A DNA stretch of 64,000 nt from Candidatus Omnitrophota bacterium (lineage in GTDB: Bacteria; Omnitrophota; Gorgyraeia; Gygaellales; Profunditerraquicolaceae). Shown here in pieces: positions 41,747-52,838 of the stretch (positions are counted from its first letter, which is position 1; the number at the start of each line of letters is the position of its first letter). The notes beneath the pieces are model-generated. The model ran no database searches, was not told the origin of the DNA, and saw only the letters and a program-made list of their open reading frames with translations. The position numbers and the translations under genes were made by a program. The DNA lies in assembly GCA_041650495.1 (NCBI GenBank), contig JBAZLB010000002.1, positions 165,960 to 229,959 of the forward strand, read 5' to 3'.

Positions 41747-41955
41747 TTTTCTTCCTTTCTCATATGCATCCCCTGCCTGGATATCCTCTCACTTAAAGGC
41801 TGCCCTTAATTATAACACCAATAGCCAGAACATAAAATTTAATTTTTAAAGATACCTGCTTAGTGCTATAATGAGGCCTATAGCTACCTCTTAAGAGAAA
41901 GAGACCAAGAAGATTGAGATTGGCATACAATAACCTTGTTAAAAAGGAGGCTTAT

Positions 41956-42234
41956 ATGCCTGAAGATCTTAATGTATTTGAATTGATAAGGCTGGTCTTT
42001 TCCTGGCTCAACCCTATAATATTTGTCATAGGGGTTCTCTTATTAGCGGCTACTGAAAAAACATTTAAGAAAATAGAAGAATTCTTTGACCAGGAGAAAG
42101 GGTTTAAGAAAAGAGTGGTGCCGCTTTTGGAGAAAGATGCCTTTAATTTCCAGCAATGGACCATGAAAAACAGGCGGATAATCGGCCTGTTTTCTATTAT
42201 TTATGTTATCTGGTCAGCCACCATATTAAGGTAA
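41956..42234 (+). CDS. Small (92 aa) two-TM membrane protein, hypothetical
   Basis: Strong RBS AAAAGGAGG 7 nt upstream of the ATG at 41956. TATAAT-like box at ~41866. Hairpin terminators follow. Confidence 0.45.
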   Translation: MPEDLNVFELIRLVFSWLNPIIFVIGVLLLAATEKTFKKIEEFFDQEKGFKKRVVPLLEKDAFNFQQWTMKNRRIIGLFSIIYVIWSATILR

Positions 42235-42296
42235 TTTTCCCCGCTTAATCCTGCCGGGAATTCCCCCGGTATTTTCAGCCCAAGCTTAGGAATAAA

Positions 42297-42333
42297 TAAA
42301 AACCAGTAATCTTCTTGCTGGTTTTTATTTATT
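42297..42333 (+). terminator. Rho-independent terminator, possibly bidirectional
   Basis: AAAAACCAG-TAATCTTCTTG-CTGGTTTTTATTTATT: 8-9 bp stem then T-run, with an A-run upstream. A smaller CCGGG..CCCGG TATTTT hairpin lies at 42254-42275. Confidence 0.5.
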
Positions 42334-42386
42334 GCAGGGCTCAACTCCCCTTTAAGCCTATCTGCGATTCTAATCTTCTTACTCAG

Positions 42387-42545
42387 CTATTTTTGTCTTA
42401 ACAGGACAATGCCGCTTATTACAGACAATATTATGGTTACGTAATTATAGATAGCCCAGTAAGTGGCGTTATTCATAGCCATGCCTATAATTGTATAAAT
42501 CGCCAAAACCAACAACAACAGCCCGATTACTTGGTTCTTTTTCAT
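42387..42545 (-). CDS. Small hydrophobic protein (52 aa), hypothetical
   Basis: MKKNQVIGLLLLVLAIYTIIGMAMNNATYWAIYNYVTIILSVISGIVLLRQK. RBS GGAGGCGG upstream, preceded by the ATGAATAAAAACCAATTAA motif. Confidence 0.35.
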   Translation of the reverse strand: MKKNQVIGLLLLVLAIYTIIGMAMNNATYWAIYNYVTIILSVISGIVLLRQK

Positions 42546-42579
42546 AACCGCCTCCAAACGACTGTTAATTGGTTTTTAT

Positions 42580-42840
42580 TCATCTAATAATGTTTATAAT
42601 AAAGAATACCACCGCTACTATGGAGAAACCAGCTAAGAATATCCCCATTATTTTAGTATTGCGGATTTCTTTTTGCATAGAGATGGGTTCAATACGCCAA
42701 TTTATCTTTTCATAAAACTTCTTTTGGATTTCAATAGTCAGTTCAGGTTTAAAAAAGACGAATAGGCCGATTATAATGCTAGCCATAGGAAGTAAGATTA
42801 GAATAAACTGTGTATTTATAATCCAATCGATTACTCTCAT
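42580..42840 (-). CDS. Small two-TM membrane protein (86 aa), hypothetical
   Basis: Start ATG overlaps the upstream gene's TGA (ATGA), RBS GGGAGAG. Translationally coupled to the 42837..43286 gene. Confidence 0.4.
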   Translation of the reverse strand: MRVIDWIINTQFILILLPMASIIIGLFVFFKPELTIEIQKKFYEKINWRIEPISMQKEIRNTKIMGIFLAGFSIVAVVFFIINIIR

Positions 42841-43286
42841 CTCTCCCGCAATGTCCTTAGTGCCCATAGGATAAAGCGGATGGGCAAGAAAATCAAATAG
42901 AGGATCAATACTTTAACTATAAATACTTTACCGAAAAAAGAAATTGATAATTCAGACCTATAAACCGCATTAGAATTTACACAGCTTGATTCTCCTAAAT
43001 CAGATTTAATACGTGCCGTATCTATAAATTCCCTTATCCGTTTTTCAATAAGTTTTGGCGGTGGATGAAGAGCTTCTTTTATAATCTCTTTAGAATTATA
43101 ACCACTACGAATCTCTGGATATATATTTATAGTGTATGTTTCTCCGTTAAGAAACTCCAATTTATATTTTGGAAATACAACGGGCATTTCAGGAAGAAAA
43201 CGCAGGATTACATACAATACAACAGCTAACCCTATTATTATCATCCCTTCTATCGCTATTATCCGCTTAATCTTTTTCTTATCCAT
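42837..43286 (-). CDS. Membrane protein (149 aa) with N- and C-terminal TM segments, hypothetical
   Basis: Complete ORF in the low-GC islet, preceded by the ATGAATAAAAACCAATTAA motif. Confidence 0.4.
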   Translation of the reverse strand: MDKKKIKRIIAIEGMIIIGLAVVLYVILRFLPEMPVVFPKYKLEFLNGETYTINIYPEIRSGYNSKEIIKEALHPPPKLIEKRIREFIDTARIKSDLGESSCVNSNAVYRSELSISFFGKVFIVKVLILYLIFLPIRFILWALRTLRER

Positions 43287-43673
43287 TCTTGATCACTCAA
43301 GCAACTATTAATTGGTTTTTATTCATCTTTTCTTAAAGGTCTTTAATTTGTCTCTATACATCTGCTTCCTTTCTCTTAATAACCTTGATATATCCTTCTG
43401 TCTTCTTGTAATTCTTTCTCTTGGCATTACCTAAAATATTCCTTTTCCCTAAATGTACTTACCGCATGTTTTGCAATTAGTGAACTTGCTATATAGATCT
43501 CCTTTTGCAGAATAAAAAAGCAACCCCCTATTTTAAAGAATTACCCTTAGATTTTGCCTATTTTGGCCCTATAACCACTCTTTTGTGGTTGTAGGTGTAT
43601 TATATCATTTTTAAAGTATCATTTAAGGATTTTTGCAAAACTCTTCGCGATAGAAAGAAATCCGCTCAGACCA

Positions 43674-43711
43674 ACAAAAAAGCGGAGACTCTTAATCCCA
43701 GAATCTCCGCC
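43674..43711 (-). terminator. Rho-independent terminator ending the RND...DUF2934 transcript
   Basis: Minus strand GGCGGAGA-TTCTGGGATTAAGAG-TCTCCGC followed by TTTTTTG. Confidence 0.55.
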
Positions 43712-43945
43712 TTCTCTTTTATATGGTTGCGGGGGTCAGTATACTAAAGAACTATACTTCTGAATCAAAAGCAACCATATTATATAGAAATAGAGCAAAT
43801 ATCAAAAAATCATGGACATAAGAGATAGATTTTATGTCCGCTTTGTCCGGTCATTTTTGGATAGAAATTGCATAACTCTTTGGGAGATTAAGAGATAAGG
43901 TTGTCCACCTCTCTTTATCCGGACATAGGCAATAAATTACTGCTT

Positions 43946-44116
43946 TTAGAAACTACAGCCTAGTAATTCTTTCTTCATTTGGCTTTTTACAATTTTTTCA
44001 GCCTGCAGCCAATAATCTAAATCACGGCTATGCTTACACCCATCCTTTTTCCAGAGCTCTTCCGCCTTTACTCTTATATAATCGGTTAGGTCAATTTCTT
44101 TACTTTTCTTTTTCAT
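43946..44116 (-). CDS. DUF2934-family small protein (56 aa)
   Basis: MKKKSKEIDLTDYIRVKAEELWKKDGCKHSRDLDYWLQAEKIV.. matches the DUF2934 A-x-E-x-W...G...D...W..AE pattern as I recall it. RBS AAAGGAG. Below the 60-aa ORF-track cutoff. Confidence 0.5.
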   Translation of the reverse strand: MKKKSKEIDLTDYIRVKAEELWKKDGCKHSRDLDYWLQAEKIVKSQMKKELLGCSF

Positions 44117-44134
44117 AACAACTCCTTTCTTGGG

Positions 44135-45355
44135 CTAATTTGTATTTATCCCTGGCGGAGTTTTCTTCCAATTATATCCTTGTGCCGCTTCTTCATAGCC
44201 CAACTTAAAAAGCTCTCGCATTTCAACGGGGTCAAAAAGCTCCCTGGCTTTTGATACATGGGTTGCCGGGATATAAGCAAGATTAAAATCTCCCTTACCA
44301 TCTTTCGTAAATAAATATAACTGAAAAAGATCTCCTATGCTCTGGGCGTTTGTGATCGTATCTACGGCACGTTCAGTTATCGCGAAAAGAGTATCATGAA
44401 CTTCTTTATAGACAGGATCTACATAACCGTTCCTTATCACGTAAATTTTATACTTATTCCTGTGGACATCGATGCTCTTTTCTTTAAGCGCTTTATCAAA
44501 CCCCTGCAGTACATCGTAAAGAAAAAAAACCTGCTTACTTATCCCGCCGTCAACATGCATTTCATCATAGACTCTGTCACCGACCTCTACGTCCAAATAA
44601 ACCGGAGGACAAGCAATGGGTATAGATGCCGATGCCAATATAACCCTGCGAAACAACTCTAAGGCTTTATCATCTCCTATAGAGGCAACCTTACCCATAT
44701 CCCAGATAACAAGCCGCTCTGCATCAAGATTAGTCGTGCCTATATAAAGCCTGCGGCCTCCATTATACTCAATAGCTATTTCCTTCATTAATCGCGCATC
44801 GAAATAGCGCTCAATCAAAAGCTTTAATGGAGTGGTGCTGGCGATGGAATTACTGAAAGGAATTCTTATACGTGGCGAGCGTACCCGCATAATGTCTTTC
44901 GTAGAATACTGCGTGTATATTTCCTTTAATTTTTCATCGTAGCTGCTGCCCAAAAAAGCAAACGGCGCAGTTATCGCTCCGGTGCTTATGCCGGTAACCA
45001 CCTTAAAAACCGGCCGTGTGCCAGATTGCGACCAACCACTCAACAATCCGGCACCGTAGGCGCCGTTAGCCGCGCCCCCTGAGATAGCAAGCATTGAATA
45101 TGTCCGACTGGCTTTGAAATTAAAAAAAAGCGGGCCTTCTCTTTCTTCCTGCTCCAACAACTTAACATAATCATTTTTAAAAGAATCACTGGGGCTACCG
45201 CTGAACGCCCTGATATCCTGCATGCCGAAAACCCGCGCGCTACTTAATAAATCCGGCGGGATAGCATGCCGTACGCTTGCGCACCCGGAAATAAAAAAAA
45301 TGAATATACTAAATAAATATAGTAGTTTTCTTGTCACTATCCGTCTATACATCAA
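44135..45355 (-). CDS. Patatin-like phospholipase, predicted lipoprotein
   Basis: Lipobox FISGCAS. Oxyanion/G-rich SGGAANGAYGAG, nucleophile elbow GISTG, catalytic DGG (VDGGIS). Confidence 0.8.
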   Translation of the reverse strand: MMYRRIVTRKLLYLFSIFIFFISGCASVRHAIPPDLLSSARVFGMQDIRAFSGSPSDSFKNDYVKLLEQEEREGPLFFNFKASRTYSMLAISGGAANGAYGAGLLSGWSQSGTRPVFKVVTGISTGAITAPFAFLGSSYDEKLKEIYTQYSTKDIMRVRSPRIRIPFSNSIASTTPLKLLIERYFDARLMKEIAIEYNGGRRLYIGTTNLDAERLVIWDMGKVASIGDDKALELFRRVILASASIPIACPPVYLDVEVGDRVYDEMHVDGGISKQVFFLYDVLQGFDKALKEKSIDVHRNKYKIYVIRNGYVDPVYKEVHDTLFAITERAVDTITNAQSIGDLFQLYLFTKDGKGDFNLAYIPATHVSKARELFDPVEMRELFKLGYEEAAQGYNWKKTPPGINTN

Positions 45356-45812
45356 AATTTTCCATAGATTCTAAGGAATCAATAAGCATTGAAATGCCGC
45401 TTTCTATCATTCTTTTATCCTCTTCTCTCAACCCCCCAACAAGCACCCTGAAAAATTGTTTTCTGTGCGCCTCAAATTTTGCTAAATAATGCTTCCCCTT
45501 ATCCGTAAGCGCAACAGTCACTTTCCTTCGGTCTTTATCGTCTCGCTGGCGGGCGAGTAGTTTATGCTTAACAAGCTGATCGGCAAGATTCGTTGCAAAT
45601 GCGCCGGAAATAGACAAATCTTTTCTTATTCTATTCATCTCAACCGGCTTGCCGCTGCGCAGAAGAGATAAAACATGGAATTCAGAAAAAGAAACCCTTT
45701 GGCTCAAAGAATAATGCTGAGCGCGGGCATGCAAGCTCCGCATAAGCCTCTGGAGCAAGCCGGAAAGCCTTAAATAATAAGACTCTTCAAACACTGAGCT
45801 CTCCTTTTTCAA
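45345..45812 (-). CDS. MarR-family transcriptional regulator
   Basis: Winged-helix MarR core (..LSISGAFATNLADQLVKHKLLARQRDDKDRRKVTVALTDKG..). Confidence 0.8.
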   Translation of the reverse strand: MKKESSVFEESYYLRLSGLLQRLMRSLHARAQHYSLSQRVSFSEFHVLSLLRSGKPVEMNRIRKDLSISGAFATNLADQLVKHKLLARQRDDKDRRKVTVALTDKGKHYLAKFEAHRKQFFRVLVGGLREEDKRMIESGISMLIDSLESMENFDV

Positions 45813-46353
45813 TAAACGACAGGCTTATAGCAACTACCTCTGGATCGTATAACAAACCGCTATTTTGTTTAATTTCCTGCAGGGCTACATCCATACTTAA
45901 TGCCGGTCTATACACCTGTGGAGAAACCATTGTATCAACCACATCGGCAACGGTGACTATTCTTGTGACAGGATTAATGTCCCTGGCGTGCAGGCCGAAT
46001 GGATAGCCTGAGCCATTTAGTCTCTCGTGGTGCTGAAGCGCAACCTCCGCAGCTATGGATTCAGGCCTTATGTCTTTCAAGAAATGATAACCCAACTCCG
46101 GATGCTTCCTCATTATCGCAAACTCATTGTCATCAAGAGCGCCGCGCTTATTAAGGATCTCTTCCGGTATTTTAATCTTTCCGATATCATGAACAATTGC
46201 TGCAAAATGGATGTGCTTAATATCTGCGTCGGAATAACTCATTTTTTGAGCAATAGCGCACGCAAACCGGGCAACACGCCTTCCATGAGTATGGATCGTT
46301 TCGTTCTCGCTTAACATCTTCACGATTAAAAACAACGAGTCAAATTTTTTCAT
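45787..46353 (-). CDS. Stand-alone HD-GYP domain phosphodiesterase (c-di-GMP)
   Basis: HDIGK metal-binding motif and HHERLNGSGYP signature. Confidence 0.8.
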   Translation of the reverse strand: MKKFDSLFLIVKMLSENETIHTHGRRVARFACAIAQKMSYSDADIKHIHFAAIVHDIGKIKIPEEILNKRGALDDNEFAIMRKHPELGYHFLKDIRPESIAAEVALQHHERLNGSGYPFGLHARDINPVTRIVTVADVVDTMVSPQVYRPALSMDVALQEIKQNSGLLYDPEVVAISLSFIEKGELSV

Positions 46354-46357
46354 TCCC

Positions 46358-49300
46358 TTAATGTTTTATAAACCTTTTCTCAAAACATTGAAGATACCAA
46401 AAGACAACCGGCACGAGAACAAAAGTAAAAATGATCGAGGCCAGCATCCCGCCGATCATCACCGCGCCCATCGACTGCTTGATCTTGCTCAAGCTCCACA
46501 ATTGCGGTAACACGCCCAAGATAATGGCAAGCGAGGTCATGATAATCGCCCGGAATTTATCCGAGGCACCCTGCCAAAGCGCATCCTTGACCGCCACCCC
46601 CTCTTTCATCTTTACCAGGGTCTGATCCAGGAGCAAGATCGCATTATTCACCACCATACCTACCAGCATGACCATACCCATCATCGAAGCCACATTCATG
46701 CTCTGGTTGAGATAAAATAGTCCTAGAACCATTCCGGCGACAGAGGCAAGCACCGTAGTCATAACCGCCAAAGGATAAGCGATCAGCGAATTCATGATCG
46801 CGCACAATAACATAAATGTCAGAATGATCGCCAAAATAAATGCCCGACCCAATTCAACATTCGTCTCTTCCATATACTCCGAATATCCGGAGTATTTATA
46901 GCTATAGCCGTCGGGAAACTTAAGCGCCTTGAACTGTTTATCCAACTTCTTACTGACGATCCCCATGGAGCTCTTGCCCAAATAACCGTCAATGCGGATA
47001 ATCCTGTTGCGGTCACGGCGCCAGATGGTTGGAACGGCCTTATCGGTCTTTAACTCTCCTAGTTCGTTGATAGGAATAAGCCCTTTGCGCGAAAGAATGG
47101 ATATTTCCTTGATATCGTCAAAATTCTGAGCATAGACATCATCCATCTCCACGTTAACCTTATATTCTTCGCCTTTCTCTTTGTAAATATTGGAATCCTC
47201 GCCGTAAATGGAGTGCCGCATCACTGCTCCCACGCTAGCCGCGTTAAGTCCGAACTCGTTAAGCTTCCCCTCATTGGGAATTAGGCTCATCTGCTTCTTG
47301 GGGCTTTTATACGAAAGGACTACGCTTTGGAAATCGCCGCTTTTATACATTGCCTCTTTCATCTGCCGGGCCAAGTCCGCCATAACCGTGTAATCCGCGC
47401 CGTAAAGATCTATAGCTACGTCGCCTTCAGACATTGAGCTCATACCCTGCCGTACGCAATACGCTTCTGTATCCGGAATCTTGGAGATAAAAACAATCAG
47501 GTCGTCGATAATCTGCATATCACTGCGTTTGCGCTTGGTTGAAGGGGCCAGGTCCAAGGTAATCTTGGCGTTTTCCACGCCGTTTTGTCCGATATTGGAC
47601 AAGTAAGCGCTTTTCTCGGGTATCGTCTCCAAGTAAGCTTCGATACGCCTGACCACCTCCTCGGTGCGTTCGATGGTCGAGCCTTGAGGAAGGGAAAAGT
47701 TGATGACAATCTTGTTCTCGTCAGACTTGGGATGGAAATCATTCTCCACATAGGGGAAAAGCAAGAACGAACCGATCAGCGCTAAACAGCAAAAAGCAAT
47801 GGTCGAGCGCGGAAAACGGAACATAAGCTCAAATATATGCTTATACTGCTTCTTAAGAAATTCCATGGAGCCATCCATAGAAGCCGGGATCATTTTTATC
47901 CTGTAGCCGATCATCTGCATCAGCCCGGGCAGGGAAGGTTTCTTGGCTGTCTTGGACTGAAGCATTGCCGCGCACAACATTGGAGTCAGCGAGAACGAAG
48001 CCAGTAATGAAAAACAGGTAGCATAAACCACTGTCAGGCCGAATGCTCTCATCATCAGTCCAACCATCCCACCCATCATGGCGATTGGCATAAATACAAC
48101 CAGATTGGTGCCGGTGGAGGCGATGATCGGGATGATAACTTCCTTAGTCCCGTCAATCGCCGCCTTTTCCGGGTTGTCGTGGCGACTCAAATGCACCATC
48201 ACGTTCTCCAAAATCACCAAGGCGTTGGAAATAAGCGTCCCGATTACCGCAGCAATGGCAAGCAGGGTCATCATGTTAATGGAAAAACCCGACATCCACA
48301 TGGGAAACAGCGTAGAGATAATCGAGGTAGGAATAATGACTGCGGAAATAAAAGACATATCCCATCGGCCCAAAAACAGCAACAACAGGATTATAGTCAA
48401 AATGATGCCTATAAATATGTTCCATTCAGTATCCAGGGTTTCATTGACGATAAAAGTCGTGGTGTCGGTGGCGATTTCCAAATGCATTCCCTGCGGCAAC
48501 CCTTTCTGGAACTCCGCCAGTCTCTTGCGCATCTGCTGAGAGATGAACACCGCGTTACCATCGGAAGCCTTATTGACGGAAAGGCCAACTACGGGTTTGC
48601 CCTTATAGCGGGCGATAGTAGAGATCTTCTTAAAGCCATCCTCTACTACCGCAATGTCCTTTAGGCGGAACTCTCCGCCGTCGGATGAGACCAGGAGAGT
48701 ATCAGCGATCTCTTCTACGCTTGTGAATTCTCCGGTAAAACGCACGCTAAGAGCATCAAAACCTTTCTCGATATCCCCAGCAGGGACATTCTTATTGCGG
48801 GCCATGAGGGCCCCAACCACCTCGCTGATACTGATATAATGCTGCTTCATAAGCATGGGATCCAAACGGACATTAATCTGGCGCTTTTTGCCTCCGTATA
48901 CGTCAACCTTGGCCACGCCGCGGATAGATGAGAATTTGGTCTTTAGAGTTTTGTCTGCGTATTCGTATATTTCGCGCAGGTCGCCGGAGTCACCGGTCAA
49001 AACTATGTCTAGCACCGGCTCGATTAAAGGATCGTATTTCTCGATTACCGGTTTTTCTATCGCGTCCGGCAGGTCGTTAAGGATGGCCTCAACTTTATCC
49101 TTAACCTCTATGGACTTGACATTGACGTCAGCGGAAAGCAGGAATTCTACGAAGATATATCCGAAACTATCATAGGACTGGCTTTTGAGTTTCTTGACCT
49201 CAGAAACCTCGGAAATAGCGTCTTCGATCTTTTTGACTACCAGTGTCTCCACCTCCAGAGGGGTCGCCCCCGGATATGCCACGGAAACCGTGACAATCGG

Positions 49301-49420
49301 AAAATCGACCTTCGGAGTCTTCTCAATCATCAGGTTAGAATAACTGAACAGCCCCAAGACCACGAATACCAACACGAACATGACCGTGGTGACCTTATGT
49401 TTAACAAAATACTCTATCAT
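46358..49420 (-). CDS. RND efflux transporter permease (AcrB/HAE1-like)
   Basis: 1020 aa, 12 TM helices with two large periplasmic loops, typical AcrB family architecture. Confidence 0.9.
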   Translation of the reverse strand: MIEYFVKHKVTTVMFVLVFVVLGLFSYSNLMIEKTPKVDFPIVTVSVAYPGATPLEVETLVVKKIEDAISEVSEVKKLKSQSYDSFGYIFVEFLLSADVNVKSIEVKDKVEAILNDLPDAIEKPVIEKYDPLIEPVLDIVLTGDSGDLREIYEYADKTLKTKFSSIRGVAKVDVYGGKKRQINVRLDPMLMKQHYISISEVVGALMARNKNVPAGDIEKGFDALSVRFTGEFTSVEEIADTLLVSSDGGEFRLKDIAVVEDGFKKISTIARYKGKPVVGLSVNKASDGNAVFISQQMRKRLAEFQKGLPQGMHLEIATDTTTFIVNETLDTEWNIFIGIILTIILLLLFLGRWDMSFISAVIIPTSIISTLFPMWMSGFSINMMTLLAIAAVIGTLISNALVILENVMVHLSRHDNPEKAAIDGTKEVIIPIIASTGTNLVVFMPIAMMGGMVGLMMRAFGLTVVYATCFSLLASFSLTPMLCAAMLQSKTAKKPSLPGLMQMIGYRIKMIPASMDGSMEFLKKQYKHIFELMFRFPRSTIAFCCLALIGSFLLFPYVENDFHPKSDENKIVINFSLPQGSTIERTEEVVRRIEAYLETIPEKSAYLSNIGQNGVENAKITLDLAPSTKRKRSDMQIIDDLIVFISKIPDTEAYCVRQGMSSMSEGDVAIDLYGADYTVMADLARQMKEAMYKSGDFQSVVLSYKSPKKQMSLIPNEGKLNEFGLNAASVGAVMRHSIYGEDSNIYKEKGEEYKVNVEMDDVYAQNFDDIKEISILSRKGLIPINELGELKTDKAVPTIWRRDRNRIIRIDGYLGKSSMGIVSKKLDKQFKALKFPDGYSYKYSGYSEYMEETNVELGRAFILAIILTFMLLCAIMNSLIAYPLAVMTTVLASVAGMVLGLFYLNQSMNVASMMGMVMLVGMVVNNAILLLDQTLVKMKEGVAVKDALWQGASDKFRAIIMTSLAIILGVLPQLWSLSKIKQSMGAVMIGGMLASIIFTFVLVPVVFWYLQCFEKRFIKH

Positions 49421-50109
49421 TGAGTCAATTCCTTCTTATCTGTTTTTCCGGCGTTTACTACCCGCAGCCGGTCATTATCCTCAAGCATACTCTGTCCGCT
49501 AAAGATTACTTTATCCCCGGATTGCAGCCCTTCGGAGATTATCGCGCCATAGCCGTTGCGTAACCGGATAACCACTTTGCCTTTCTTGGCGAAGCCATTC
49601 TCATCTTTCCAGACAAAATATTCGTCTCCGGCGATATCTAATACTTCATTGGAAACGGCTAATACGTTATGCAGCGTCGTGGTATGAGCGCGAACCACTA
49701 ACGCAACTCCCGGATCCCGAGGCTTATTGAACTCTATTTCTACCGGAAACATACCGGCGTCCATATCTAATTCCGCGCCTATGCTTTTTAATCGGGCGCA
49801 AACAACAGATTTATCGGCCGGATCGTATATCTCTTGCCCTTCCCGAAGCGCATTCTTTACTTCACCGGTGACAAAACCGCGGGCAAGGCGTCCGTCAATA
49901 ATTCTGACCGTAAACTGGGCGTAGACGGGGACATCCTCAGTCTTAATCACCCGAACCTCAACCGGCTTTCCGGCCTTCTTCCATTCCTCATAGAAACTGA
50001 CGATTGCCTTTCCGCGAGCCGCCTTGACCGCCTGGATACGTATTACGACGGAAGCTAAACTAACGATAATAATTATTAAGTATACCGTCTCTCGCTTAAG
50101 GTTTTTCAT
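49417..50109 (-). CDS. Short periplasmic adaptor (membrane fusion protein, HlyD/AcrA family)
   Basis: N-terminal TM anchor, beta-barrel/lipoyl-like segments, 4-nt overlap with the RND gene. Only 230 aa, so the alpha-hairpin appears reduced. Confidence 0.6.
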   Translation of the reverse strand: MKNLKRETVYLIIIIVSLASVVIRIQAVKAARGKAIVSFYEEWKKAGKPVEVRVIKTEDVPVYAQFTVRIIDGRLARGFVTGEVKNALREGQEIYDPADKSVVCARLKSIGAELDMDAGMFPVEIEFNKPRDPGVALVVRAHTTTLHNVLAVSNEVLDIAGDEYFVWKDENGFAKKGKVVIRLRNGYGAIISEGLQSGDKVIFSGQSMLEDNDRLRVVNAGKTDKKELTQ

Positions 50110-51460
50110 ATTCGTATTTTTCGGTTACTAATTTCTCGATTTTTGCCAGCGTTATATTTATATTGTAAAGCGTGGCTTCCTTATTGAGCCTTTGGTTAGT
50201 CAAAAGAAGTTCCGCAGTGTTAAGATCGGTGATACTGACCTGGCCAGAAGAAAACATCTCCTGTGTCTGTTTAAAGGCCTCTTCGGCAAGGTTTACTGCT
50301 TCGATGTTTGCTTCAAGATTGTCCTTATACTGTTCATATTCTAAATAAGCTTTCTTAAGCTCCAACAATAAATCTTTTCCTGCCTGTTCTTTCCTGAGAA
50401 CAGCAATTTCTTTATCCGCTTTAGCTTGACTCAACTGAGCCTCCTTTGCTCCTCCCTCCCAAATCGGGATACTCACCTTAAGGCCGGCGGCAGAGTAATT
50501 ATCGAGTTCGTCCCAAGCAGTAGTTTTATTGGAATCGCTGCGATAATTCATAGAGGCAAACGCCGAAATCGTAGGCAGAAAATTTGCATACTTGCTTTTT
50601 ACGTTCGCCTCGGTAGAGTAGATTGTTTTACCAAGTTCCTGCAAATAAGGTTCATATGCGTACATGGCATTCACCAGCGTTTCATAATTAAAATCAGCAT
50701 ATTGTTCTTGAAAATTTCCCTCAAGTTCAATCTTCCGGTCAAGATCAATATCAATAATCCTTCTTAAGGTTTCAGTGGCGGCATCGAATTGGGTGCGGGC
50801 TTCATTGACTGCCGGAATCCTAGCCGAGACATCGGCATTCATTTTAACGATCTCATATTTCGAGCTACGGCCTCCGTAAGAGCGCTGCCCGAGCAATTTT
50901 TTATTCTCAAGAACATCTACATATGATTTCTCGGCTATAGCTAGCGTATTTTTAGCAAGCAGGCAGCTATAGTAAGTTAATTTTGCGGCAAAAATAACTT
51001 CTTGCCTGCTTGCTTCACTGTTAAAACGAGTCGCTTCGACCGCATTCTTAGCCGAATCTATTGCGTACATCACTTTGCCAAACGACCAAACAAGCTGCGA
51101 AGCGCTTAAGCCGTTATCTAATGAATGGTCGTAATACTTGCCGGCGGCTTTAGCCGGGTAATCCATATTGTTAGTCCAAGTCGATTGGCCGCTAATATGC
51201 AGCAATGCCTCGGAGCGAACTTCTCCGTAAACCCCCTTGCTTCTCTTAACCTCGCTATCCTTTATTTTTAATTCCTCGCTGTTTTCCAAGGCACGTCTGA
51301 TAGTTTCATCAAGGCTAATTTGCAAAGCAGAACTTATCTGAGAACCATCTGCCAGGGCGATATTAAAGATAAACGCTACGATAGCACACAAACTTGTAAT
51401 AAATAACATTGGTCTTTTCATTGCTGTATTATCACCTCTAATCTTCTTAGGAAAAGCCAC
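50096..51460 (-). CDS. TolC-family outer-membrane efflux channel
   Basis: Signal peptide and two OEP repeats with coiled-coil-rich sequence. Overlaps the adaptor gene. Confidence 0.8.
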   Translation of the reverse strand: MAFPKKIRGDNTAMKRPMLFITSLCAIVAFIFNIALADGSQISSALQISLDETIRRALENSEELKIKDSEVKRSKGVYGEVRSEALLHISGQSTWTNNMDYPAKAAGKYYDHSLDNGLSASQLVWSFGKVMYAIDSAKNAVEATRFNSEASRQEVIFAAKLTYYSCLLAKNTLAIAEKSYVDVLENKKLLGQRSYGGRSSKYEIVKMNADVSARIPAVNEARTQFDAATETLRRIIDIDLDRKIELEGNFQEQYADFNYETLVNAMYAYEPYLQELGKTIYSTEANVKSKYANFLPTISAFASMNYRSDSNKTTAWDELDNYSAAGLKVSIPIWEGGAKEAQLSQAKADKEIAVLRKEQAGKDLLLELKKAYLEYEQYKDNLEANIEAVNLAEEAFKQTQEMFSSGQVSITDLNTAELLLTNQRLNKEATLYNINITLAKIEKLVTEKYEYEKP

Positions 51461-51596
51461 AATCTATGCTCCGATATGAACATCATGTCATTCTATGAAC
51501 ATATGTTCATAAACATAATATAACATTCACAATACCTTTTGTCAAGGTGATTTTAATATTTTAGTAAACTATGCGGAATTGGTATTATGGTGGGAA
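51461..51596. promoter_or_regulatory. Promoter/operator region of the efflux operon with TetR-type palindromes
   Basis: Perfect 18-bp palindrome TATGAACATATGTTCATA plus a half-site ATGAACATCATGTCAT. The related imperfect palindrome TGAACGATTGTTCA lies upstream of tetR at ~52245. AATATAACATTCA is shared between both regions. Confidence 0.5.
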
Positions 51597-52208
51597 CTAT
51601 TTATTTGCAGTACCGTTTAGGAATAATCTAAGAATTACGCCAGACAAATCAATTAAATTGTCGTTCTTCTCCTTCTTCTCTTCCAGCCATCTTTGAATAA
51701 TCGTTTTTATAATAGAAGTAAACACCTCCGCGATCTGTCCCGCATCAAAATCCCTGCTGACAACTCCCTGCTCTTGCGCTTCCTTCAGTAGGCTTGTTGT
51801 ATATTCTTGCATTTGTAGCCCGGTGGGAGATTTTAAGATTCTTCTTTCCGACAATAATTCGTTTCCCTCAGAAATAAATATACGAAAAAAATCCTGGTTC
51901 TTTTCAAAAAAGACTAAGCCTTCTTGCACAAAAATCTCCAGCTTCCTTCTTGTATCTTTCACCTGCCCTATCTTTTCCTTAATTGTAACTTGCAAACTTT
52001 TCATCTTCTCTTCAAGCAAAGCAAAATAAAGGGCATCCTTATCTTTAAAATGTAGATAAACCGTTCCGGTAGCGTACTGTGCTTCTTTTGCAATATCTCT
52101 TATTGTCGCCTCGTGGTACCCTTTTAAAGCAAATAAGTGCTCGGCTGCTTTCAGGATATCGGACCTGCGCAATTGCCTATCTCTTTCTTTTCTGCTTAAC
52201 ACGGTCAT
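51597..52208 (-). CDS. TetR/AcrR-family transcriptional repressor
   Basis: N-terminal HTH (..ATIRDIAKEAQYATGTVYLHF..), ~200 aa. Confidence 0.8.
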   Translation of the reverse strand: MTVLSRKERDRQLRRSDILKAAEHLFALKGYHEATIRDIAKEAQYATGTVYLHFKDKDALYFALLEEKMKSLQVTIKEKIGQVKDTRRKLEIFVQEGLVFFEKNQDFFRIFISEGNELLSERRILKSPTGLQMQEYTTSLLKEAQEQGVVSRDFDAGQIAEVFTSIIKTIIQRWLEEKKEKNDNLIDLSGVILRLFLNGTANK

Positions 52209-52469
52209 CTTTACTCCTATGAATTATGAATAATGTCTAAATAATGAACGATTGTTCACAATTAAATATAACATTCAAACAGTCTTCTGTCAAGGCAATT
52301 TCTAAAATTTGAGAGGTGAACCCGATAAGGACGCCCATACCTTGCCATAAAGGAATGGCAAGTATGCGGCTTTCTGCCGCAGAAATACGGCACGGCAGAA
52401 AGACTCTCTGTATATAGCTATATTTTAATTTTAAAAGAACTCCGTCCTCTCCTCTGCCCTCATAATTTT

Positions 52470-52521: not shown

Positions 52522-52838
52522 TTGCGGGGGTGCGATTTGAACGCACGACCTTTAGGTTATGCATGCTACTACAGTTTTCACTGCTCTGTCATAAGCGCTT
52601 ATGACAGATTTGTAGTCTGGACTATACCTTGACCGAAATTATCTCGGCCTCTGCCGTCTAGTCTCTACACCTTTCCGTTAGAAACTCTAGCGGACTTGGT
52701 TCGGTATTACCTTTTTTGACTCTGCGGCTCCACCGAATTTGGCAGACTATCCTTCGGCCGTTTCCGGCCGAGGAGCCCATCGGACAACACATTTGTGTCC
52801 ATTGAGCCTAATGAGCTACCGGACTGCTCCACCCCGCG
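52522..52838 (-). tRNA. Initiator tRNA-fMet (anticodon CAU) split by a ~243-nt group-I-like insert in the anticodon loop
   Basis: Exon 1 (52838-52805) is CGCGGGGTGGAGCAGTCCGGTAGCTCATTAGGCT. Exon 2 (52561-52522) is CATAACCTAAAGGTCGTGCGTTCAAATCGCACCCCCGCAA. Joined, they give a canonical cloverleaf almost identical to E. coli tRNA-fMet as I recall it, with C1xA72 mismatch, anticodon loop CUCAUAA and T-loop TTCAAAT. CCA is not encoded. Confidence 0.8.
52562..52804 (-). ncRNA. Probable group I (self-splicing) intron, ~243 nt, inserted after U33 of tRNA-fMet
   Basis: 5' exon ends in U and the insert ends in G (group I U/omega-G rule). Internal AAGGTGTAGAGACTAGACGGCAGAG (plus 52647-52672) resembles the P7/J8-7 catalytic core of cyanobacterial tRNA group I introns (GGTGCAGAGACTCGACGGGAG, recalled from memory). 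No ORF inside. Confidence 0.65.

Follow-up and report, generated by a model that had tools for sequence, protein, structure and literature searches.

Gene organization of the locus

The analysed window, the whole 64-kb stretch of DNA, belongs to a Candidatus Omnitrophota bacterium and contains, on the minus strand between positions 43946 and 52208, eight genes coding, in this order, for a TetR-family repressor, a TolC-like outer membrane factor (OMF), a periplasmic adaptor, an RND transporter, a stand-alone HD-GYP protein, a MarR-family regulator, a patatin-like lipoprotein (hereafter lipase) and a DUF2934 protein. The genes and coordinates given in an earlier note on this DNA were confirmed, seven of the eight by Pfam matches and the adaptor, the exception, by the NCBIfam model RND_mfp and its BesA-like fold. 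The features of the locus are:

52265-52293, minus strand: tetR promoter, TTGACA-17-TATATT with extended -10 (TGTTATATT); scan score 11/12
52245-52258, no strand: putative TetR operator O1, palindrome TGAACGATTGTTCA, immediately 3' of the tetR -10
51597-52208, minus strand: TetR-family repressor, FadR-like, 203 aa; Pfam TetR_N, E 4.6e-17
51517-51545, minus strand: operon promoter, twin of the tetR promoter, TTGACA-17-TATATT with extended -10
51477-51509, no strand: putative operators O2a, TGAACATATGTTCA (51496-51509), and imperfect O2b, TGACATGATGTTCA (51477-51490)
50096-51460, minus strand: TolC-like OMF; Pfam OEP, E 3.4e-47; NCBIfam TolC family, below cutoff
49417-50109, minus strand: short periplasmic adaptor, predicted hairpin-less and BesA-like, 230 aa; NCBIfam RND_mfp, E 4.8e-13
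46358-49420, minus strand: RND inner-membrane transporter, HAE1-like, 1020 aa; Pfam ACR_tran, E 6e-213
45787-46353, minus strand: stand-alone HD-GYP, predicted cyclic-dinucleotide phosphodiesterase, 188 aa; Pfam HD_5, E 2.2e-32
45345-45812, minus strand: MarR-family regulator, 155 aa from TTG or 149 aa from GTG at 45794; Pfam MarR, E 1.5e-8
44135-45355, minus strand: patatin-like lipid acyl hydrolase, lipoprotein; Pfam Patatin, E 9.6e-22
43946-44116, minus strand: DUF2934 small protein, 56 aa; Pfam DUF2934, E 2.3e-10; AAGGAG 5' of the gene
43674-43717, minus strand: strong intrinsic terminator, GC-rich stem GGCGGAGA/TCTCCGC followed by a T-run

The locus is flanked by eno, ftsB, tRNA-fMet, purB and purL, a synteny shared with loci L006 and L010, and is chromosomal by these housekeeping flanks. 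The purine biosynthesis and glycolysis genes nearby are uninformative on lifestyle in either direction.

The operon genes are spaced by -26 to +18 nt. OMF and adaptor genes overlap by 14 nt and adaptor and RND genes by 4 nt, the RND stop codon is followed by the HD-GYP gene after 4 nt, and the lipase and DUF2934 genes are 18 nt apart, with the AAGGAG within this gap. The HD-GYP/MarR and MarR/lipase overlaps of 26 and 11 nt described previously stand, as does the 4-nt gap, and 8 nt is an alternative for both overlaps. The 26-nt value applies to the TTG start of MarR and the 8-nt one to its GTG at 45794; a GGAG lies six nt 5' of this GTG, a start that agrees with the gene calls of relatives.

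The strong terminator at 43711-43674 is also confirmed (when 43655-43945 is folded, the minimum-free-energy structure includes its 17-bp stem; z = -4.05 for the region), and a weak hairpin with a T-run (around 43838-43795), absent from the earlier description, precedes it. In the interior of the operon, the search for separating elements retrieved merely weak terminator-like hairpins and promoter matches of 9/12, none of them credible; the promoter scan addressed sigma-70 consensus sites only, and promoter-like matches were overall at chance level (16 observed versus 19.3 +/- 5.0 expected). Considering the tight or overlapping junctions, the lack of a credible internal promoter or terminator and the single operator-bearing promoter before the OMF gene, we infer that the seven genes from OMF to DUF2934 are co-transcribed as one TetR-controlled unit.

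Promoters, operators and the TetR-family repressor

Only two extended -10 promoters are present in the window, 5' of tetR and of the OMF gene, and only two TGAAC-N4-GTTCA palindromes, one after each of these promoters. The pump unit was previously described as TetR-controlled, which fits the evidence, with the correction that a promoter and operator are dedicated to tetR and that a 136-nt spacer, in which the second promoter and operator lie, sets this gene apart from the OMF gene. A promoter of the same type is observed 5' of the tetR orthologs in eight loci (L002, L003, L006, L010, L014, L030, L036 and L038), all of which also keep the O2 pairing of a full palindrome with a second half-site (GTTCA). 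In orthologous loci the first operon gene is preceded by the same promoter type and the position of O1 is maintained, the whole promoter and operator architecture being kept in at least eight species-level genomes. In 695 kb of related loci, approximately 23 of the 27 TGAAC-N4-GTTCA sequences are located at tetR or operon promoters.

The repressor most resembles the acyl-CoA-sensing FadR regulators. Its best NCBIfam match, over the full length, is Bacillus FadR (77.7 bits versus a cutoff of 200 bits), and its best PDB matches are acyl-CoA-binding FadR proteins (3whb, 1vi0, 5gp9 and 3vpr; E around 1e-12). Since this similarity is well under the curated family cutoffs, any ligand proposed for TetR is a guess.

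As in the AcrR-acrAB, TtgR-ttgABC and CmeR-cmeABC systems, a TetR-family repressor with palindromic operators over sigma-70 promoters seems to control itself and an adjacent RND pump. Nevertheless, tetR is here co-directional with the operon, whereas it is divergent in AcrR-type systems, the operon has four extra genes, and the ligand-binding domain is closer to FadR acyl-CoA sensors than to AcrR or TtgR. A fatty-acid-induced TetR/RND pair is FarR-FarE of Staphylococcus aureus.

The efflux pump

The OMF has a signal of the signal-peptidase-I type without lipobox, as judged from its N-terminal sequence and a lipobox scan, and its true start is likely the ATG at 51421. No Pfam match was obtained for the adaptor, and its match to RND_mfp is confined to the C-terminal half. 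Its AlphaFold2 model (pLDDT 87) presents a transmembrane helix followed by an all-beta structure, and the best fold matches are the Borrelia BesA structures 4kku, 4kkt and 4kks. The best PDB match of the RND transporter is MdtB, and in the alignment the DD pair is replaced by SN and the lysine by N, Ser398, Asn399 and Asn925 standing where AcrB has its proton relay residues D407, D408 and K940. This substitution is kept in all RND orthologs, whereas canonical RND transporters of the same phylum retain DD and K. The pump had been called canonical, a description that does not apply: by sequence alignment and structural model, its adaptor lacks the hairpin and its RND subunit lacks the D407/D408/K940 relay, the latter also being a difference from the pumps of AcrR-type systems.

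Borrelia burgdorferi BesABC is likewise a tripartite RND system whose adaptor has no alpha-hairpin (PMC3807786, PMC2279261). BesA is the best match of our adaptor among all PDB chains, yet sequence identity is 11-12%, and the adaptor described here has 230 aa and an N-terminal transmembrane helix. We know of no HD-GYP or lipase genes associated with BesABC.

The patatin-like lipoprotein

The lipase sequence includes a lipobox (ISGC, with Cys25), Ser124 in a GISTG motif and Asp269 in a DGG motif, and Gly24, Cys25, Ser124 and Asp269 are invariant across 45 homologs. Its AlphaFold2 model, of only moderate confidence (pLDDT 67), matches Pat17, CapE/CapV and PlpD over approximately 350 residues in their patatin fold. 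The glycine-rich loop is GGAANG instead of the usual GGGx[R/K]G.

Since Omnitrophota were proposed to be epibionts or predators, the lipase may be regarded as an offensive or scavenging enzyme acting on host or prey membranes, with the pump and TetR shielding the producing cell from the lysolipids and fatty acids that this action sets free. The predicted export of the lipase, its structural relatives among secreted patatin enzymes (PlpD, ExoU and VipD), the resemblance of TetR to fatty-acyl sensors and the reported association of the phylum with predation in preprints are in line with such a role. We nonetheless consider it unlikely: the lipobox implies retention on the own membranes unless the lipase is surface-exposed, genes for a secretion system are lacking next to it, and homologs with 40-45% identity are present in free-living Proteobacteria and Planctomycetota.

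The HD-GYP protein

Alignment with PmGH (4mcw) and V-cGAP3 (5z7c) revealed that all metal-binding and GYP motifs (H, HDIGK, H, HHERLNGSGYP and D) are present in the HD-GYP protein, and the catalytic motif residues are invariant in 11 orthologs. The catalytic domain is the same as in PmGH, V-cGAP3 and RpfG, but here it constitutes the whole protein (188 aa), with no receiver or sensor domain, and in the HHERLNGSGYP motif of this protein and its closest relatives N replaces D. The substrate could be cGAMP instead of c-di-GMP, because the best PDB match is the cGAMP-specific V-cGAP3. Loci L006 and L010 each encode a protein that by motif inspection reads as PAS-GGDEF-HD-GYP, by which this lineage would have c-di-GMP synthesis.

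The match to V-cGAP3 could also be read as a sign of a CBASS-like module, in which the patatin would be a CapV-type effector switched on by a cyclic dinucleotide and the HD-GYP protein a V-cGAP-type signal-degrading enzyme; CapE and CapV are among the fold matches of the lipase, and CBASS phospholipase models match it, albeit weakly (PADLOC, 54 bits; NCBIfam, 27.6 bits versus a cutoff of 200 bits). We regard this as highly improbable and largely refuted, as cyclic dinucleotides act in the cytoplasm, whereas the invariant lipoprotein signal places the lipase outside it, neither the cluster nor its flanks encode a CD-NTase or another cyclase, and the lipase and the HD-GYP protein are each found without the other. 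Furthermore, the likeness to CapV (14-20% identity) goes no further than the patatin fold in general.

Of 22 loci with this pump type, about 17 have the HD-GYP gene behind the RND gene (13/15 lipase-anchored and 4/6 adaptor-anchored loci), starting 3-40 nt past it, and three of these approximately 17 loci have no lipase. By comparison, in 78 control loci centred on generic HD-GYP genes, RND, OMF and patatin genes were absent from the neighbourhood.

Distribution and variation in Omnitrophota

At least 13 species-level genomes of Omnitrophota share the OMF-adaptor-RND-HD-(MarR)-lipase order, with 50-80% protein identity, so the comparison of synteny does not refute the proposed arrangement. We compared 41 evaluable species-level loci around the lipase gene. 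In 22, a tripartite pump chain (RND, MFS or MacB) is directly 5' of the lipase gene, on the same strand and with the lipase last (15 short-adaptor RND, five MFS, one MacB and one other RND); three further lipase loci lack a pump but retain this TetR with its promoter and operator. About 40% of the lipase homologs of the phylum adjoin no pump. The same TetR, promoter and operator drive, in different genomes, an RND pump with HD-GYP and lipase, a TolC-HlyD-MFS pump with lipase, a PAS/radical-SAM pair with lipase, or the lipase by itself; in L030, where there is no pump, the operator-bearing promoter is 18 nt 5' of the lipase ORF (our own ORF call).

[quoted passage not shown] The lipase is linked to RND, MFS and MacB operons, which have the OMF and a HlyD-type adaptor in common, and the OMFs of these operons all lack a lipobox, while that of the lipase is invariant. 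YbjP binds non-lipidated TolC of Escherichia coli in AcrAB and MacAB pumps (PDB entries; PMC13082787, PMC13095208), an association with RND or ABC pumps (PMC13082787) that parallels the link of the lipase to three pump classes. However, YbjP, a small DUF3828 protein that is not an enzyme, is encoded outside pump operons and is unrelated to the lipase, which has a complete patatin fold, and the link of the lipase to pumps is one of genomic association alone. Given also the approximately 40% of homologs away from any OMF, and the lipases of L030, L002 and L003 that are TetR-controlled with no pump, docking seems to have a low probability.

The four genes behind the RND gene had been presented as one extension of the efflux operon, but they do not behave as a single module. 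HD-GYP and lipase are independent add-ons, as three loci have pump and HD-GYP only and others pump and lipase only, and they are possibly unrelated in purpose, since each occurs without the other. MarR and DUF2934 are sporadic, variable components. MarR, whose best NCBIfam matches are MprA and FabT (both below cutoff), is restricted at this position to certain lineages (L010, L014, L043, L082-84, L087 and L167), and a DUF2934 homolog is found behind the lipase in L002, L003, L006, L010, L014, L034, L035, L082 and L084. Nucleotide homology with close relatives ends at 43966, 20 nt within the 3' end of the DUF2934 gene.

Such variability could mean that HD-GYP, MarR, lipase and DUF2934 are mere neighbours, functionally unrelated to the pump and transcribed from their own unrecognised promoters, having been brought together by a variable accessory region or by horizontal shuffling. 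In fact, the region 3' of the RND gene is shuffled between close relatives (L085 has 90% nucleotide identity through the pump, followed by MarR-DUF2889-lipase-ACP, with HD-GYP absent), recombinase, HTH_17 and methylase genes are located near the locus in L081 and L085, and the promoter scan was limited to the sigma-70 consensus. We consider this explanation quite improbable, because the genes are on a single strand, with 4-nt gaps or overlaps and no internal consensus promoter or strong terminator, their order is kept across many species, the locus in the window is placed between syntenic housekeeping genes, and none of the 78 generic HD-GYP loci has a pump neighbour.

A putative amphiphile stress regulon

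With slightly better than even confidence, we propose that this chromosomal locus is an amphiphile/fatty-acid stress regulon, repressed by a TetR that also regulates itself, in which hydrolysis of acyl esters in the periplasm and turnover of cyclic dinucleotides are coupled with efflux. Of the twin promoters, one would drive tetR and the other the seven-gene string. The ligand that releases TetR would be amphipathic and of lipid type, for instance a long-chain acyl-CoA or a fatty acid, a suggestion based on TetR being, over its whole length, most like FadR-type TetRs. Derepression would yield one polycistronic mRNA, with translational coupling through overlapping stop and start codons, and the pump would expel amphiphiles across the envelope. 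The lipase would be exported and lipid-anchored, facing the periplasm, where its Ser124-Asp269 dyad may hydrolyse acyl-ester lipids (such as lysophospholipids, phospholipids that are misplaced or lipids of foreign origin), either detoxifying them or supplying products to the pump. Since the HD-GYP protein lacks a sensor domain, the operon promoter alone would determine how much of it is present, and once the regulon is on it would lower c-di-GMP (or 3'3'-cGAMP), tying chemical stress to a change of behaviour. MarR may be a lineage-specific second regulatory input. The coupling of efflux to c-di-GMP turnover and membrane remodelling advanced in the earlier note remains a proposal; the wiring is kept in many related species, no published description of it was found, and its function is what we infer.

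The arrangement had also been considered undescribed. This holds for an HD-GYP or patatin gene within an efflux operon, on which our literature search found no paper, but not for the co-transcription of a lipase with an RND pump. The nearest precedent is Burkholderia llpE, which codes for an alpha/beta-hydrolase. In the llpE-ceoA-ceoB-opcM and llpE-bpeE-bpeF-oprC operons, the gene for this periplasmic lipase-like protein shares its transcript with a tripartite RND pump, a regulator being dedicated to the operon, and the protein is dispensable for efflux of known antibiotics (PMC1557404, PMC5587915). There, llpE is the first gene, annotated as lipase/carboxyl esterase and not as a patatin, the regulator is of the LysR type and HD-GYP, MarR and DUF2934 are absent, whereas here a patatin-fold lipoprotein is encoded at the 3' end and has links to MFS and ABC pumps as well.

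Gene Organization and Regulatory Signals

The operon under study, from an uncultivated phylum, encodes a tripartite pump under TetR regulation together with accessory genes that are unusual and conserved. ORF calling in the window placed eight open reading frames in series on the minus strand, between positions 43946 and 52208, seven of which could be named by Pfam:

51597-52208, minus, TetR regulator (TetR_N, E 4.6e-17)
50096-51460, minus, OEP/TolC-like OMF (OEP, E 3.4e-47, two matched stretches)
49417-50109, minus, adaptor, 230 aa (no Pfam match; C-terminal half only of NCBIfam RND_mfp)
46358-49420, minus, AcrB-family RND (ACR_tran, residues 1-1009, E 6e-213)
45787-46353, minus, HD-GYP protein, 188 aa (HD_5, E 2.2e-32)
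45345-45812, minus, MarR regulator with a winged-helix MarR domain (MarR, E 1.5e-8, 34.8 bits, above the 24.6-bit cutoff)
44135-45355, minus, patatin lipase (named by Pfam)
43946-44116, minus, DUF2934 protein (40.4 bits, above the 22-bit gathering cutoff)

The junctions of the accessory genes, read in the earlier note as a 4-nt gap and overlaps of 26 and 11 nt, were found again in the window: 4 nt separate the RND and HD-GYP genes, the HD-GYP and MarR genes overlap by 26 nt (8 nt with the alternative GTG start of MarR at 45794, which has GGAG upstream and agrees with the MarR gene calls in relatives) and the MarR and lipase genes by 11 or 8 nt. The OMF and adaptor genes overlap by 14 nt, the adaptor and RND genes by 4 nt, and the 18-nt gap between the lipase and DUF2934 genes contains AAGGAG.

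A consensus scan retrieved two 11/12 promoters with an extended -10 box, one before tetR (52293-52265) and one in the 136-nt spacer between tetR and the OMF gene (51545-51517), which under a stricter pattern are the sole two in the 64-kb window. Just downstream of each -10 box lies one of the window's only two TGAAC-N4-GTTCA palindromes (at 52245 and 51496). TetR, with its N-terminal HTH and these putative operators at its own and its target promoters, is predicted to be an autoregulated repressor. Internal promoters or terminators, which the earlier note had named as signals that would separate the genes, were searched for in the operon interior, where promoter matches reached 9/12 at best, a chance frequency, and terminator-like hairpins were only weak and lay within coding sequence. 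Given two promoters with putative operators and weak interior signals only, we consider that tetR has a promoter of its own through which it is autoregulated, and that the seven genes downstream are likely to form one polycistronic unit. That the HD-GYP, MarR, lipase and DUF2934 genes are instead transcribed independently of the pump is unlikely, in view of the gene overlaps, the common strand and the conservation of the arrangement.

A strong terminator had been placed only after DUF2934; the hairpin at 43717-43674 is indeed a strong intrinsic terminator, and a weaker hairpin with a T-run precedes it by about 100 nt. The approximately 660 nt after DUF2934 (43300-43945, minus strand) are non-coding, AT-rich (32-34% GC) and not conserved in close relatives. 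They contain a promoter-like sequence (43805-43777, 9/12), followed by a 10-bp stem and the strong terminator, so that an RNA roughly 100 nt long could be made there. Between DUF2934 and the terminator, the sole Rfam match was to a snoRNA, at chance level, and the whole window had none at gathering thresholds.

Conservation of the Locus in Related Genomes

We collected 80 loci around lipase homologs, one genome per species, compared them by tblastn, ORF calling and clustering, and annotated the cluster representatives with Pfam (loci are designated by L and a number). ORFs in these loci were called by a longest-ORF heuristic; HD-GYP in L018 and L034 was settled by tblastn, the gene being split in L034. 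A second sample, independent of the lipase, was anchored on the adaptor and includes six loci on long contigs (L166-L171), so that all counts cover pumps near a lipase or an adaptor of these families and not all Omnitrophota pumps. Wherever the source is named, lipase homologs at 63-92% identity belong to Candidatus Omnitrophota MAGs; the short adaptor family (221-249 aa; 209-236 aa in the 44 homolog clusters recovered) has Omnitrophota in every named match, and the window adaptor is 100% identical to a protein of an Omnitrophota MAG.

Conserved synteny, on which the earlier note had made its operon depend, was observed. Of the Omnitrophota-type loci, 41 had 3 kb or more of upstream sequence; in 22 of these 41, a tripartite pump lies directly upstream of the lipase on the same strand, and in 15 species-level loci this is the chain found in the window. 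Three further loci hold pump-less, TetR-led lipase chains, and approximately 40% of the lipase homologs are located away from pumps.

Gene chains upstream of the lipase
OMF, short adaptor, RND (window type): 15 loci
TetR, OMF, HlyD adaptor, MFS: 5 loci
OMF, HlyD adaptor, MacB, DUF6515: 1 locus
Another RND type: 1 locus
TetR, PAS/HisKA, B12-radical-SAM, lipase (no pump): L002, L003
TetR, lipase (no pump): L030

The regulatory module accompanying tetR reads CTTGACAAAA, then TGAATG(G/T)TATATT, then ATGAACAnnnGTTCAT with the second half-site, and is kept before tetR and before the next gene; in L030 the copy after tetR stands before the lipase alone. Approximately 23 of the 27 palindromes in 695 kb of loci sit at tetR or operon promoters. 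Since the same module is found ahead of RND, MFS, PAS/radical-SAM or lone-lipase genes, TetR and the lipase appear as the constant pair, and the intervening pump as the variable part.

The palindrome TGAACATATGTTCA also occurs in L005 (16476) and L007 (20350), 32-38 nt upstream of what seems, by eye, to be a gene for a DUF134-type regulator, the first of a cluster that resembles arsenic-resistance loci and includes permease, methyltransferase and thioredoxin-like genes; it could be a further regulon member or a coincidence. In L007, L009, L012, L023, L034 and L041, another TetR-like regulator of 220-226 aa overlaps the OMF gene of this pump type, with a TATAG-N4-CTATA palindrome in the spacer at its promoter; there, the regulator has been swapped and the pump, HD-GYP and lipase genes are retained.

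HD-GYP follows the RND gene directly in 13 of the 15 window-type lipase-anchored loci and in four of the six adaptor-anchored ones (approximately 17/22 when L085, which lacks it, is counted).

Accessory genes in the adaptor-anchored loci
Pump and lipase: L166
Pump, HD, MarR and lipase: L167
Pump and HD only: L168, L169, L171
Pump only: L170

The nucleotide sequence of L085 matches that of the window at 90% identity across the pump genes as far as the RND stop codon, past which L085 encodes MarR, DUF2889, lipase and ACP, HD-GYP being absent. Generic HD-GYP genes (42-52% identity) had no RND, OMF or patatin neighbour in any of 78 metagenome loci, and the sole close ortholog recovered in that scan, L087, shows the order HD-MarR-lipase. 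MarR is present in L010, L014, L043, L082-84, L087 and L167, and a DUF2934 gene comes after that of the lipase in L002, L003, L006, L010, L014, L034, L035, L082 and L084. HD-GYP/MarR/patatin modules beside RND pumps, for which the earlier note had proposed a search, do recur, but not as a fixed block: loci with pump and HD-GYP only, together with loci holding the lipase and no HD-GYP (e.g., L085), point to HD-GYP and lipase as two independent recurrent add-ons, and MarR and DUF2934 appear facultative.

Other genes recur beside the lipase. A 481-aa B12-binding radical SAM protein is encoded immediately before it in L002 and L003 (4-nt overlap), and across L002, L003, L014, L023 and L025 such a gene abuts the lipase or is inserted between RND and HD-GYP/lipase, making it a second recurrent lipase partner. 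An acyl-carrier-protein-like gene (PP-binding) follows the lipase in L081 (11296-11598) and L085 (11383-11631), and 4HBT thioesterase, SDR, GST and DoxX genes precede it in L081; by its gene content, this neighbourhood beside the RND-MarR cluster appears lipid- or detoxification-flavoured. In the closest relatives, the lipase/DUF2934 genes are followed by one for a Pfam-less protein of 249-251 aa (L082, 2811-3566; L166, 12966-13721; L167, 13986-14735), a counterpart of which is absent from the window.

The Pump Proteins

The RND protein aligns over its full length with MdtB, CmeB and AcrB, its best PDB matches, and is a 12-TM permease of the AcrB/AcrD/AcrF type, scoring 634 bits with NCBIfam RND_permease_2, under the 1250-bit cutoff. 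At the positions of AcrB D407/D408 (TM4) and K940 (TM10) it carries S398, N399 and N925, a proton relay site without the Asp-Asp/Lys set. The substitution is found in all RND orthologs checked (approximately 22); canonical RND proteins of the same phylum, in L033, L036 and L081, keep DD and K. In the AlphaFold2 model of the adaptor (pLDDT 87), a TM helix is followed by all-beta domains and the alpha-hairpin is absent; its best PDB fold matches are to Borrelia BesA, described as a hairpin-less adaptor (PMC3807786). Adaptor orthologs carry the RND-MFP_C domain.

The window pump thus shares with AcrAB-TolC-type HAE1 systems a full-length RND permease and a TolC/OEP OMF encoded with the pump, but differs from them in lacking the Asp-Asp/Lys relay and the adaptor alpha-hairpin. 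Its earlier description as a canonical TolC/adaptor/RND unit has to be given up, judging from the residue alignment and the adaptor model. We found no description in the literature of a relay-less, hairpin-less RND pump subclass; Borrelia BesB was considered as a parallel relay-less RND, an idea that was dropped because the paper is silent on the relay. If the coupling proposed below holds, a conserved RND without the canonical relay, paired with a hairpin-less adaptor, would inform our view of how such pumps assemble and are energised.

TetR, HD-GYP and Lipase Proteins

The best matches of TetR are the acyl-CoA-sensing FadR proteins of Bacillus, with scores far under the family cutoffs: FadR is the best full-length NCBIfam match (77.7 bits against a 200-bit cutoff), and FadR proteins are the top PDB matches (E approximately 1e-12).

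The HD-GYP protein consists of the catalytic domain only, without a sensor. Aligned to PmGH (4mcw) and V-cGAP3 (5z7c), it retains all metal-ligand motifs (H, HD, H, HH, D) and GYP, the motif reading HHERLNGSGYP against HHExxDGxGYP (D to N); metal and catalytic residues are invariant in its orthologs, and it is a predicted cyclic-dinucleotide phosphodiesterase. By motif inspection, L006 and L010 encode a protein reading PAS-GGDEF-HD-GYP, so the lineage can presumably make c-di-GMP.

The lipase has a signal peptide, MMYRRIVTRKLLYLFSIFIFFISGC, with a lipobox judged by eye against the consensus. All 45 homologs compared share G24 and C25 without exception, and likewise G122-I-S124-T-G126 and D269-G-G, the Ser-Asp dyad. 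The model, of moderate confidence, shows a patatin fold along the entire length, and Foldseek matched it to Pat17, CapE, CapV and PlpD (probability 1.00). The glycine-rich loop GGAANG (G93-G98) is a conserved variant of GGGx[R/K]G in which the basic residue is missing. Invariant lipobox, Ser-Asp dyad and modelled patatin fold together indicate that the lipase should be an exported, lipid-anchored acyl hydrolase. A CBASS/CapV-type antiphage module was rejected: there is no cyclase (CD-NTase) in the cluster or flanks, the lipase carries an export signal where a cytoplasmic effector would be expected, and PADLOC and NCBIfam matches are weak.

Proposed Function

An amphiphile/lipid stress regulon is the best-supported reading of these sequences. 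The sequences show which genes are present, how they are packed, how the regulatory signals are laid out and that all this is conserved; from them we infer the ligand, substrates and physiological output as follows. A lipid-like ligand would release TetR from the putative operators at both promoters, and a single mRNA would then yield pump, phosphodiesterase, MarR, lipase and DUF2934. The pump would expel amphiphiles, the lipase would hydrolyse acyl-ester lipids on the periplasmic side, and the sensor-less HD-GYP would lower cyclic-dinucleotide levels in proportion to induction. An offensive lipase, predatory or scavenging, accompanied by self-protective efflux, is a less likely alternative.

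Another role for the lipase is suggested by YbjP, an E. coli lipoprotein that binds non-lipidated TolC in both the AcrAB and MacAB pumps (PMC13082787). We hypothesized that the lipase may dock on the OMF in a similar manner, adding lipase activity, since the pumps to which it is linked, of three classes, have OMFs that are uniformly devoid of a lipobox. Nevertheless, the likeness goes no further than being a lipoprotein and having an OMF without lipidation: the lipase has a patatin fold, the DUF3828 domain is absent and the protein is unrelated to YbjP. As approximately 40% of its homologs also lie away from pumps, we regard docking as unlikely. We are similarly doubtful of a broader proposal for Omnitrophota, in which the patatin lipoprotein would be a dedicated enzymatic accessory of TolC-type ducts, docking on OMFs without lipidation whether the pump is of the RND, MFS or ABC class, and acting there on lipids of the envelope or of foreign origin. 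Its partner RND would represent a distinct subclass (hairpin-less adaptor, no Asp-Asp/Lys relay), and the operon would hard-wire the sensor-less HD-GYP, each induction of the pump thereby causing a direct fall in cyclic dinucleotides.

Lipase-like genes co-transcribed with an RND pump are known from Burkholderia, in llpE-ceoAB-opcM and llpE-bpeEF-oprC (PMC1557404, PMC5587915). The arrangement, presented in the earlier note as not described, is therefore not new in that respect, but the literature yielded no efflux operon with an HD-GYP gene among its members; an Acidithiobacillus paper places an adenylate cyclase, not an HD-GYP, beside an RND pump. Nor did we find a description of a patatin lipoprotein tied to tripartite pumps, or an account of such an arrangement in the literature on Omnitrophota with patatin or phospholipase.

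Accessory genes in efflux operons hint at what pumps do in nature apart from conferring antibiotic resistance. Throughout a poorly known phylum, a predicted exported lipase is paired time and again with three tripartite pump classes, and a sensor-less enzyme, predicted to be a cyclic-dinucleotide phosphodiesterase, with a single RND type, itself unusual. If the proposed coupling is real, transcription would directly connect chemical or lipid stress with the level of a second messenger, and the locus would be a natural system for understanding why pump operons include lipase-like genes, of which Burkholderia llpE is an example. Thanks to the putative palindromic operator and the small size of the regulon, these hypotheses are testable in a heterologous host, although the organism is uncultivated.

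Genomic Context

The operon is flanked upstream by enolase, FtsB/DivIC and initiator tRNA genes and downstream by a radical SAM enzyme, purB and purL. Enolase and tRNA-Met also lie ahead of tetR in L006 and L010, with purB-purL downstream in L010. These housekeeping flanks and their synteny rule out a mobile island, and argue that the window locus is chromosomal and vertically inherited in its lineage. In the relatives L081 and L085, the locus lies beside recombinase, HTH_17 and methylase genes.

The interval between DUF2934 and purB looks like a variable spot. In L006 and L010, genes for a chagasin-like small protein and a 1150-aa PAS-GGDEF-HD-GYP protein were recognized by eye approximately 0.4 kb past the lipase, before purB; in the window (41900-43300), a low-GC patch holds the radical SAM gene instead, along with small ORFs of 149, 95 and 106 aa.

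Upstream of tetR (52522-52838, minus strand), the anticodon loop of an initiator-type tRNA-Met(CAU) is split by a group I intron of approximately 243 nt. The tRNA surfaced only through the intron match (Rfam RF00028, 45 bits, E 3.8e-10, just below the gathering score of 50), ARAGORN reporting no tRNA in the window. The spliced tRNA has 74 nt, a C1:A72 mismatch and no encoded CCA. Group I introns in tRNA-fMet are known from cyanobacteria; to our knowledge, one in Omnitrophota may be new. Since the orthologous tRNA is uninterrupted in L010 and L006, the intron is a lineage-specific insertion.
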